A DNA stretch of 64,000 nucleotides from Candidatus Thorarchaeota archaeon (lineage in GTDB: Archaea; Asgardarchaeota; Thorarchaeia; Thorarchaeales; Thorarchaeaceae). Of the stretch, positions 5,457 to 33,882 are shown piece by piece; position 1 is the stretch's first letter; each line of letters starts with the position of its first letter. Made by a program: the position numbers and the translations under genes. The stretch covers positions 64,001 to 128,000 of the forward strand of contig PRDH01000039.1 of the NCBI GenBank assembly GCA_003345545.1, read 5' to 3'. The notes under the pieces are model-generated. The model was not told where the DNA came from. It did no database searches and was given only the letters and a program-made list of their open reading frames with translations.

Positions 5457-6086
5457 TCATATTCTCTCATACCTGAATGCACAGCGCTTGTCACCTGACG
5501 CAATGGTTTCCTTGCGGGTGAATCTTATCCAGGTGTCGACGACGCTAGCAAGAATGCCATCATACTCGCAAAGGATTGGCCCCAATTCAGGTCTCCCTGC
5601 TTCTCGCAGGATATCAAAGTAGAAACATCTCTGAATATCAAATCCGAATTCTTTGTCGTTCTTGTGGACCTCAATTAGCTTGAAGAACTCATTTTCATAG
5701 TTTGCCTTGTTTCCACTTCGGACCCATTCTGTGAAAGCATTCCATGGGTCTTTGCTCTGCTTGAAACCGGCTGCTTCCGTTTCAAAGAAACCCAGCAACA
5801 TCTCTCTATAGATTGCAAGAACTGACTTCCTCAGTTGCGAATACGATGCTTTGCCTTCTCTGAGTACATCATCGACGGCCATGACAAAGAGCGAGTTGAT
5901 GCCGTGCCTCTTTGCCAATGGATTAGGCATCATCTGGCTGTAGTTGTTATAGTGTATCCTGAACTGCCTATCATACAGCTTATGCAGAGCTTCTCCTCTC
6001 TGCTGGCCAAAGAGTCTGGTGAACTCCTTTCCTGCCAAATCGGAAAAATAACCAATGAGTTGTTGAGATTGAGATACCTCGGTCAT
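5457..6086 (-). CDS. ATC-hydrolase-family (V4R-like) protein
   Basis: FDIQRCFY...PELGPILCEYD...RKETIASGDKRCAFRY pattern. Confidence 0.75.
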   Translation of the reverse strand: MTEVSQSQQLIGYFSDLAGKEFTRLFGQQRGEALHKLYDRQFRIHYNNYSQMMPNPLAKRHGINSLFVMAVDDVLREGKASYSQLRKSVLAIYREMLLGFFETEAAGFKQSKDPWNAFTEWVRSGNKANYENEFFKLIEVHKNDKEFGFDIQRCFYFDILREAGRPELGPILCEYDGILASVVDTWIRFTRKETIASGDKRCAFRYERI

Positions 6087-6159
6087 CGTCTTCCGTCTTC
6101 TTTGCGGTTGTTAAAGGAGTTTGGGATACTTGCATGTTTCTCTCGGATATCACTCTTGC

Positions 6160-6233
6160 CGTGAGTGGTCACCATGTGGTCAGATTCGTGGTCAGTCCAG
6201 CTCAGAAGGGGCATATCTTGTGACCACTCCACG
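6160..6233. repeat. Inverted repeat GAGTGGTCAC/GTGACCACTC with three GTGGTCA direct repeats, the first within its left arm
   Basis: Perfect 10-bp arms at 6163-6172 and 6220-6229; GTGGTCA at 6165, 6176 and 6188. Confidence 0.6.
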
Positions 6234-6584
6234 ATGGGTTGTGAATCATTATGACTAGGGACAGTCAAACACGCAATCGTAACTTGAAATACGGATATCA
6301 TAGGTACGTTCAAATCGCTGACGCACTGGCCCACGCCTTTGCCTATAGAAGGTGAGTGAATTTTCGGTGACGAAATGGCAGAGAGCGCCCCAACTGCATT
6401 CCCGATCAGTGATTGCTGACACATACTTTAGAAAGCAGTCCATCACGGCAGTATCCAGCTCTGCTCCCTTCAAATGTGTCCTCGGAATGGTCTATGCAAA
6501 ACACTCAATATTTCAAATAGTATATGAAGCAAATTCTTGCGTACTGGAAAATGTTTATAATAAACCGTTCACAGATTTTGGTTT

Positions 6585-6787
6585 GTCAGTCAAACCTTAT
6601 ATGCATCCGAAGCACAGCGAATGCGCGACCGATATCGGCGTCGCAAGACGTTTCCGAATAGTCTTGGTGTTTCACTTGCACATGCATCAAATGAATCTTC
6701 TATCTGCAAAGTGGTCCCGGTCGAGCGGCCTTGGGACCGCTGCCCTAAAATGGAGTGTTGACAGAGATGAAACTCACTGTTGCTGAC
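6585..6787 (+). ncRNA. Candidate structured ncRNA or leader RNA (copy A)
   Basis: Nested helices GTCAAAC/GTGTTGAC, ATGCAT/ATGCAT and GAAGCAC/GTGTTTC enclose two hairpins; also GTGGTCCC/GGGACCGC. G-U pairs favour the + strand. TTTATAA box at 6554. Confidence 0.45.
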
Positions 6788-6879
6788 CAATGGCATGGCT
6801 CACGAGCCATAACACAACTAGGATTTGCATTGAAGAAACTTCTTCTCAGGAAGACGCATACCCGCAGGAGCAAGGAAAT

Positions 6880-8418
6880 ATGGGTCTATTAAAATCGTTT
6901 CTCGGTCTGCCAGAGGCGACAGACAAAGTCTTGCACTTGGCAAAAATCATGGCCATCCTCGGACCTCTCGCCAATTTCACTTTCGTGCTCTCCACGACAT
7001 TCTATGTGATTTTTGTTGCAGAGGCTCTTGGCGGCGGCTCCGGTATGTACCTTCAAGGTATGGGTCTTGTTGGAACTCTTGTAGTTGTTCAGATGGTTGT
7101 TCAGACGATGCTGGACTACCCGACGGGTGCAATCGGAGATTGGATTGGTCAGAGATGGATCATTGCATCATCCTGCATATGCTTTGCTGTGTCCTTCATC
7201 ATGCTTTCTTTTGTTACCACTTCAACACCATTCCTGTACTTGGTTGTGGTCTACCTTCTAGCTGGAATTGCGGCGTCTCAGCAGAGCGGCGCTTTCAGCG
7301 CCTGGTTCGACAACAACTACCGTGTAGCGATGCCTGGTGACTCCGATCGGAAGCAGTATGGTGTATTCTTGGGTCGCACGGGCATGGTAATGCAAATCGT
7401 TGCGACTGCGTCCTTGATTCCTGGGAGTATTCTTGCTGTGTTATTCTCAAGACCTTGGGTATTCCAGTTTCAAGGTGTTCTTGCCCTAGTCTTGGCTTTG
7501 ATTTCATTCCGTCTGGTCAGAGACTTTCCAGAGGTCGAAGCGCAGCGAATTGAGCGACCAGATATGGGCGAGTACATTTCGATATTGAAGGGCGGCGTGA
7601 GTTTTCTCTTCAGATATCCCTTTGTGAGGTATATCGTTATGGGAGGCATGCTTGCTACGAGCAGCATAATGGTGTGGGGCAATCTAATCCTCTTTCCGAT
7701 GTACTATCTATATCTTATCACAGATGTTGCTGTGGCTAGTTTCAGGACGCTCCTCTTTTTGCCAGGCATTCTTGCACAGGAACGTTCTGGCATTTGGTCT
7801 CGAAGATTTCAGCCAAAGAAATGGATTCCACGTTTCCGATTTATGGAAACCTGTGGATTTGTCTTCTTCTGGCTATTTGCGACGATCATGTATCTCTTCC
7901 CACCCGTCGCTGGTGAGTCTTCCAACATCATCTCAATCTATTGGCCGTTCACAGGGATTCAGCTGTTGACCCTTCCTCTTGAGAATCTCCTGCCAATCGT
8001 TCTGATTTTCACTATATTCGTCACTACGAGCTTCTTCGGCGGCTTTGCGGATGTCTTGACCCAGAGAGTGCTATTAGACGTGATTCCAAATCGCATTCGG
8101 AATAGCATGTATTCACTCTATCCAACCATCGCCACAATCTTCGCGATTCCTCAAATCGCTCTCTTCGGATGGCTAATCATGATCATTGGCTTTCCGTTGA
8201 CTCTGGCTGGTTGCGGTATAGTATCCCTTGTAGGCGTCATTATGATAGTACATGGTTTTAGACATGAGCCTCCAGAGCGCGAGGAAGCTACATGGTCCGA
8301 TAGAGGCCCGGCACTAGACCAATCAACAGGTGCCACAACTCGGGATGAAGTAGAGGTCGAATCAGAGCTACTTGATACAATTGAGCAGTTGCTCGACGAT
8401 AAACCCCCCAAAGACTAG
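6880..8418 (+). CDS. MFS transporter
   Basis: DYPTGAIGDWIGQR (MFS motif A), ~12 TM helices, acidic C-terminal tail. Start adjusted to MGLLK. Confidence 0.88.
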   Translation: MGLLKSFLGLPEATDKVLHLAKIMAILGPLANFTFVLSTTFYVIFVAEALGGGSGMYLQGMGLVGTLVVVQMVVQTMLDYPTGAIGDWIGQRWIIASSCICFAVSFIMLSFVTTSTPFLYLVVVYLLAGIAASQQSGAFSAWFDNNYRVAMPGDSDRKQYGVFLGRTGMVMQIVATASLIPGSILAVLFSRPWVFQFQGVLALVLALISFRLVRDFPEVEAQRIERPDMGEYISILKGGVSFLFRYPFVRYIVMGGMLATSSIMVWGNLILFPMYYLYLITDVAVASFRTLLFLPGILAQERSGIWSRRFQPKKWIPRFRFMETCGFVFFWLFATIMYLFPPVAGESSNIISIYWPFTGIQLLTLPLENLLPIVLIFTIFVTTSFFGGFADVLTQRVLLDVIPNRIRNSMYSLYPTIATIFAIPQIALFGWLIMIIGFPLTLAGCGIVSLVGVIMIVHGFRHEPPEREEATWSDRGPALDQSTGATTRDEVEVESELLDTIEQLLDDKPPKD

Positions 8419-33577: not shown

Positions 33578-33633
33578 TAGACAATCGTTGTTGGGGAGGA
33601 AGAGTTTATGTTGGTATCTTACGTATATTTCAC

Positions 33634-33869
33634 TGGACGATTGGCCGACACCATGTTGCTCCATGCGTCGTCGGTAGTCGTGGGAACGACGCAGATACAC
33701 TTAGTGGTCTATGCGAATGTCCCGTCGCGGGAGATTCGCCTCTCACCGAAAAGGTTCAGGGAGATACCCGAATAGTGTGTTCAGCGAGCACCACTCATGA
33801 TCAAAGAGAAAAGAGGGTGGACCTCGAGCCCCAAAAATGGGCACCAAAAAGGGCGTTGGCCTTCGTCCA
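33634..33869 (+). ncRNA. Candidate ~236-nt highly structured ncRNA (copy B)
   Basis: Closing helix TGGACGA/TCGTCCA plus GGCCGAC/GTTGGCC. Nested helices TGCTC/GAGCA, TGCGTCGT/ACGACGCA, ATACAC/GTGTGT, GCGAAT-TCCCG/CGGGA-ATTCGC, CCACTC/GGGTGG and GCCC/GGGC. TTTATG lies 29 nt upstream; no ORF of 60 aa or more. Confidence 0.6.
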
Positions 33870-33882
33870 CTCATTGTTCTGA

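Follow-up and report, generated by a model that had tools for sequence, protein, structure and literature searches.

The segment at positions 6585-6787 of the analysed window, a 64,000-nt stretch of a Candidatus Thorarchaeota contig (PRDH01000039.1), raised the question of whether a structured RNA is encoded there and, if so, to which family it belongs. The original prediction described this segment (copy A) as a set of nested helices, homologous to a second RNA at 33.6 kb (copy B), which could act either as a riboswitch-like leader of an MFS transporter gene starting at 6880 or as a stand-alone RNA. Copy A is oriented on the same strand as the MFS gene and lies directly before it. Our comparison of the locus with its relatives indicates that copy A is probably a degenerate member of a leader that precedes the MFS transporter gene genus-wide, with no relationship to the 33.6-kb RNA.

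Every string quoted for copy A was found in the window, namely GTCAAAC (6589-95) with GTGTTGAC (6755-62), ATGCAT (6601-06 and 6682-87), GAAGCAC (6609-15) with GTGTTTC (6667-73), and GTGGTCCC (6711-18) with GGGACCGC (6733-40). A TATA-like box, TTTATA at 6554-59, was likewise present about 30 nt before the proposed start of copy A. The hairpin GUGGUCCC/GGGACCGC kept 8/8 pairs in all four close genomes, whereas in G001, the closest relative, the three outer helices kept 2/6, 3/6 and 4/7 of theirs. Thus, copy A contains a single real helix, and the nested architecture described around it is not conserved. The fold of the 203-nt plus strand was marginally better than that of shuffled sequences (z -1.8; 10/200 shuffles as good), and the minus strand had no fold better than shuffles (z -0.44). 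The 3' half of copy A, not the 5' half, was conserved in G001, G007 and G017.

Relationship to the RNA at 33.6 kb

In contrast to copy A, copy B folded clearly better than shuffles (z -4.3), and its homologues were identified by BLAST in 20 of the 24 sampled genomes of the genus. The RNA is flanked by one divergent and one convergent gene. The consensus fold derived from an alignment of 21 homologues comprised 61 predicted pairs, 15 of them with compensatory changes, and the same 21 homologues were used to build a covariance model (R1). An identity of either copy with RNase P RNA was rejected, as the RNase P RNA is located on another contig of the window's own genome (G000). Neither copy corresponds to the SRP RNA, which was found elsewhere in the genus mates. 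The archaeal SRP RNA gave no match in the G000 assembly (92.9% complete) and is present in 24/25 genus mates; its lack in G000 is probably an assembly gap.

The view of copy A as a diverged paralogue of the copy B family is favoured by eight short motifs arranged in the same order in both copies, by the TATA-like box preceding each of them, and by a semi-global A-to-B alignment ranking in the upper 2-3% of controls (z 1.9; 17/500 shuffles and 2% of 1492 random genomic 203-mers). However, the ordered motifs did not hold as a sign of homology. The colinear chain of exact matches (at least 5 bases each) amounted to 48 bases versus 41.7 +/- 6.4 in shuffles; 99/500 of the shuffles and 15% of the 203-mers drawn at random from the genome did as well, which corresponds to the chance level. 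The local alignment of the two copies was also at the chance level (z 0.55; 166/500 dinucleotide shuffles scored as high), and neither of the two covariance models found the other element. In an unfiltered R1 search of the whole window, copy B scored 224 bits, and the plus strand of copy A was absent from the 98 hits at E<=10. R1 gave no match at E<=1 in the 22 loci holding the orthologous leaders of copy A, a model of the leader core (R2) did not match copy B, and BLAST within G000 established no link between the two copies.

The conserved elements of the two families argue in the same direction. The invariants of the copy B family, i.e., the GGACGA/UCGUCC terminal stem, the blocks UCGUGG, UACGAA, UCGUGGGAA and GGUUCAG, and the combinations CACUCAU...GGUGGACCUC and CACCACUCAUG...GAGGGUGGACCUC, were all missing within 6585-6787. 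The shared 9-mer CCGAAUAGU falls in a portion of copy B that is variable outside G000 and G001. The strings GyGUUGrC and GyCrAcACC are covarying strands of a helix in copy B and fixed boxes (AGUUGACAGA and ACAAAC) in the family of copy A; where a motif is conserved in the latter family, its copy B counterpart is variable or covarying, and the reverse is also true. The identity to G001 was 63% for copy A and 97% for copy B. A paralogous origin of copy A is therefore hardly credible.

The two elements have in common their genome, in which they lie 27 kb apart, a conserved synteny and the absence of an Rfam match (none at gathering scores, and noise in the E-value mode). They differ in kind: copy B, ~240 nt long, stands alone and folds into several helices that include 15 covarying pairs, whereas copy A reads as an mRNA leader with one covarying hairpin. 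A spacing of ~26-28 kb between the MFS gene (6880 in the window) and copy B (33632), on one contig, was also observed in at least six other genomes (G001, G006, G011, G013, G016 and G020); hence, the synteny of the region is conserved across the genus. The window has one copy, not two, of a new Thorarchaeota RNA family, with no paralogous family to build on, and the negative result on paralogy removes a false lead.

Layout of the transporter leader in the genus

The 450 nt upstream of 22 MFS orthologues from the Thorarchaeota genus were aligned, the alignment of the leader core being named A3, and R2 was the covariance model of that core. MFS orthologues were found in 28/28 genus genomes with an identity of 72-89%, and the transporter had no NCBIfam or PDB sequence match. 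R2 gave one match per genome in 25/28 genus members, and where the match and the MFS orthologue share a contig, the match always lies shortly before the latter. Across 16 other genera of the class (55 genomes), R2 gave no match. The single match in G000 (Table 1) had the lowest score in the genus. The proposal that copy A belongs to a leader of the transporter gained support in this way, as the element is conserved before the orthologous MFS gene across the genus. The Rfam search, run in gathering and E-value modes, revealed nothing above noise for the G000 leader, and the canonical leader of G016 likewise had no match.

Table 1. Coordinates of the transporter leader, its gene and the comparator RNA within the window
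Feature	Position	Strand	Remarks
TATA box TTTATA of the MFS leader promoter	6554..6559	+	within ATG[TC]TTATA; conserved in 22/22 aligned leaders
Operator-like inverted repeat AAACC-N13-GGTTT	6562..6584	.	between the TATA box and the predicted start
Predicted transcript start and ACAAAC box (here GTCAAACC)	6585..6596	+	box conserved in the genus alignment
Fast-evolving spacer; position of ORF1 in relatives	6597..6652	+	54% identity to G001
Conserved leader core, match to R2	6653..6774	+	71.1 bits, E 1.9e-10
Pyrimidine (anti-SD-like) block CUUCUAUCUGC	6697..6707	+	CUCCUAUCUCC in nearly all relatives (alignment A3)
P1, UUCUAU 6698-6703 / AUGGAG 6750-6755	6698..6755	+	closes the junction over the uORF SD; support moderate
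P2 hairpin, 6710-6720 / 6731-6741	6710..6741	+	11/13 model pairs in G000
uORF2, 41 codons	6767..6892	+	SD = GGAG 6752-55; end 10 nt beyond the MFS AUG
GGAG Shine-Dalgarno of the MFS gene	6867..6870	+	9 nt before the AUG; conserved in G000, G001, G007 and G017
MFS transporter gene, 512 aa	6880..8418	+	Pfam MFS_1, 2.3e-16
Copy B, comparator outside the leader	33632..33872	+	stand-alone structured RNA conserved in the genus

The genus leader has a fixed order of elements. The TATA box within ATG[TC]TTATA is followed by an inverted repeat with the consensus AAACCATT-N7-AATGGTTT, the ACAAAC box, a micro-protein gene (ORF1, in 14 genomes), a conserved block that terminates in GGACAAAUCUCCUAUCUCC, the hairpin P1a (optional), the hairpin P2 (13 bp, loop GUGUGAUC), the string AUAGGAAG and, finally, the ATG of a uORF of ~35 codons. 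The TTTATA string is a putative promoter element, from which the transcript would start about 26-30 nt downstream, and the ACAAAC box at this predicted start is the first motif that had been quoted for copy A. The inverted repeat was present in all aligned leaders. Its arms changed symmetrically, reading AACCAA...TTGGTT in G008 and G024 and ACCGTT...AACGGT in G041, which is the pattern expected of an operator for a dimeric factor; a repressor may accordingly be a candidate for binding this palindrome. A role of the palindrome as a multi-site regulon motif was rejected, since the strict pattern had one instance in G000.

In many genomes, a frame of ~52 codons at 6425-6600, preceded by the SD-like AGGAGGT 7-8 nt before its ATG, crosses the TATA box and the palindrome. 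This frame was rejected as coding, as it had no coding signature (0.30/0.28/0.28 differences per codon position; 152 synonymous to 564 non-synonymous), and the segment was read as promoter DNA. The AGGAGG string adjoins the start (6424) of a divergent gene on the minus strand (6083-6424, 113 aa), which had no Pfam or NCBIfam match, showed genus-wide conservation limited to residues ~25-88, and shared 4 nt with the next gene, 5457-6086, which encodes an ATC_hydrolase-domain protein.

The leader core contains a hairpin that covaries, a closing helix with weak support and a further hairpin that is optional. P2 was 97.9% paired across the family, with compensatory changes in 5 pairs, and its loop GUGUGAUC was invariant in 20/22 relatives. 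The closing helix P1 (UCCUAU/AUAGGA) was paired in 77.7% of cells over 22 genomes, and its changes were mostly one-sided wobble changes; the only two-sided change was supplied by G000, in which P1 is fully paired. P1 had no counterpart in the six aligned leaders lacking the uORF. The optional hairpin P1a was 100% paired, and 4/8 of its pairs were swapped in G018 and G019 with the pairing left intact. None of 500 shuffles reached the observed helix pairing values, and the minimum-free-energy structure of the canonical G016 leader was the P1/P1a/P2 junction (z -3.85). The invariant loop GUGUGAUC, together with the invariant block GGACAAAUCUCCUAUCUCC, suggests that a factor may be bound there. 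Two further pairings were considered and rejected, namely a pseudoknot joining the P2 loop to the UUUCACAU block and a pairing of the pyrimidine block with codons 2-5 of the MFS gene, as in both cases the variable side changed without compensation.

ORF1 (38-41 codons) was found in 14/22 aligned leaders, between the ACAAAC box and the leader core, with the consensus MTMT..KPCLT.EDKTICVQSFGALCNAG.SVSE; the G011 example is located at L066:3189-3308 (minus strand of the locus). Its coding signature was clear (0.35/0.26/0.53 per codon position; 808 synonymous to 511 non-synonymous) and included a third-position bias. ORF1 was restricted to the Thorarchaeota genus and to the MFS leader, and it had no Pfam match. 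It was absent from G000, as neither a protein query of the genome nor a nucleotide profile applied to the spacer gave a match. An interpretation of the 5' half of copy A as an ORF1 relic was rejected, because the nhmmer ORF1 profile found nothing there; the equivalence of the two is positional only.

A uORF that begins at the conserved ATG, preceded by the conserved SD, and extends to the region of the MFS start was open in 15/22 aligned leaders. Its length was 34-41 codons in G000, G001, G007 and G017; in the other 11 it was 34-38 codons, in most cases 34-35. In G006, it was shortened to 23 codons. The ~35-codon uORF of the genus alignment ends 6-9 nt before the MFS ATG. Its coding signature was weak (0.30/0.34/0.37 per codon position; 229 synonymous to 458 non-synonymous), which would be a weak indication of purifying selection on the peptide. 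The MFS start was placed at 6880 on the basis of the conserved GGAG and of a stop in the 6790 frame of G001. In G000, the frame at 6790-6879, matching the C-terminal part of the uORF of relatives (TSSQEDAYPQEQGN), is now in-frame with the MFS gene, and the resulting ORF at 6790..8418 could include a 30-residue N-terminal extension of the transporter from the ATG at 6790.

Other frames in the region were rejected as genes. The plus-strand frames of 144 and 99 aa through copy A were not conserved, met an early stop in G001 and showed no coding signature in the promoter region. A 46-aa frame ending in MEC*, together with the MEC* mini-ORF, occurred only in G000, G001, G007 and G017. Indels broke the frame of the conserved block (read as 'ORF3') in several genomes, and the minus-strand frames of copy A (17 to 116 codons) included no conserved frame.

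Proposed mode of action

Judging from the arrangement of its elements, the leader would most likely serve in the cis translational control of the transporter. In the proposed mechanism, transcription would begin ~26-30 nt after the TATA box, perhaps gated by a factor on the palindrome. In the transcript, the pyrimidine block would pair with the Shine-Dalgarno region of the uORF, forming P1 and closing the junction around P2. Upon the opening of P1, ribosomes would translate the uORF of ~35-41 codons, cross the ribosome-binding site of the transporter and terminate at its start codon or beside it; with the stop in this position, translation of the transporter would be coupled to that of the uORF. 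The operator function, the sequestration of the SD and the coupling of the uORF to the MFS gene are thus all putative roles deduced from sequence.

Whether the core also senses a ligand is a separate matter. A metabolite riboswitch that senses the substrate of the transporter and exposes a ribosome-binding site would fit a core which precedes a transporter gene, which has invariant single-stranded blocks and, next to its covarying stem, a hairpin loop that is likewise invariant, and which folds, in the canonical leader, into a junction sequestering the SD. Such a switch is nevertheless quite improbable: only one long helix covaries in the core, a conserved multi-helix pocket is lacking, compensatory changes are lacking in the candidate pseudoknot of the loop with the upstream block, the element is confined to one locus per genome in one genus, and the Rfam searches matched neither the G000 nor the canonical leader. 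The other role originally suggested for copy A, a small stand-alone RNA with its promoter at the TATA box and its 3' end ahead of the transporter gene, is very unlikely. It would account for the presence of a TATA box and of a conserved hairpin, but no terminator-like site or U-run was found between 6585 and 6880, no second TATA-like box was seen between the core and the MFS start, and in most genomes the frames are continuous from the leader core into the MFS start. A reading that goes beyond translational control by the leader as such, and that we put forward with considerable doubt, is that the genus leader constitutes a new archaeal cis-regulatory RNA. Its three-way junction, through the invariant GUGUGAUC loop and the pyrimidine block, would bind a ligand or protein and gate translation of the uORF and, by termination-reinitiation, of the MFS transporter, with ORF1 forming part of the device.

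The copy in the window and its wider context

At ~295 nt, the G000 copy is shorter than the leaders of its relatives; ORF1 and the optional hairpin are missing from it, and its invariant motifs are mutated. Positions 6554-6892 of the window appear, on balance, to represent the promoter and the ~295-nt 5' leader of the MFS mRNA in a diverged and partly decayed form. The CUCC...CUCC motif is changed to CUUC...CUGC, the loop GUGUGAUC is replaced by UCGAGCGGCC (6721-6730), and deletions of 1 nt and 3 nt have shifted the frame of the uORF relative to G001. Given these mutations and the frameshift, the control exerted by the leader in G000 may be weakened, and the leader may no longer work by the proposed mechanism.

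A stronger version of this reading holds that the G000 leader is a relic, through which the transporter is still transcribed and in which the regulatory device no longer works. Besides the altered motifs, the missing ORF1 and the frameshift, owing to which the former C-terminal frame of the uORF reads into the MFS frame, it is favoured by the weakest R2 score of the genus (71.1 bits) and by the faster evolution of the copy A region than of the adjoining genes (identity to G001 of 63%, versus 86% for the MFS gene). However, P2 has kept 11 of its 13 pairs, P1 has retained full pairing through a two-sided change, a frame of 41 codons still runs uninterrupted from the conserved ATG past the MFS start, and conservation with G001 amounts to 81% over the TATA box and palindrome. 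Complete loss of function therefore seems unlikely, and we retain the interpretation of a diverged, partly decayed leader. The G000 copy provides an example of leader decay, in which motifs were lost, the uORF was frameshifted and the micro-gene was deleted, and the contrast between intact and decayed leaders may help to identify the essential parts.

Translational control by leaders and uORFs is a familiar mechanism in bacteria. The closest known kind of system is the bacterial control of transporter genes by uORFs and leaders and by termination-reinitiation coupling (PMC12548453, PMC8092293, PMC13285730). The bacterial uORF systems share with the Thorarchaeota leader a long 5' leader, a foldable ribosome-binding region, a membrane-transporter target and a short upstream ORF whose stop lies beside or overlaps the main start codon. 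The Thorarchaeota leader differs from them in belonging to Asgard archaea, in its archaeal TATA promoter, in the lack of a transcription terminator, and in its invariant hairpin loop and invariant pyrimidine block. It also resembles the SD-sequestering switches (riboswitch platforms and RNA thermometers), in that a short helix, UCCUAU/AUAGGA, would occlude an SD beside a stable hairpin; unlike in those switches, the occluded site would be that of the uORF rather than of the main gene. A limited literature search found no published account of such leader/uORF control in Asgard archaea. The leader is an undescribed element of a mechanistically familiar kind. It adds to a recurring Thorarchaeota pattern of long leaders, micro-ORFs and hairpins before MFS transporters, and, if the gated three-way junction outlined above is true, it would be among the first translational switches described in Asgard archaea.
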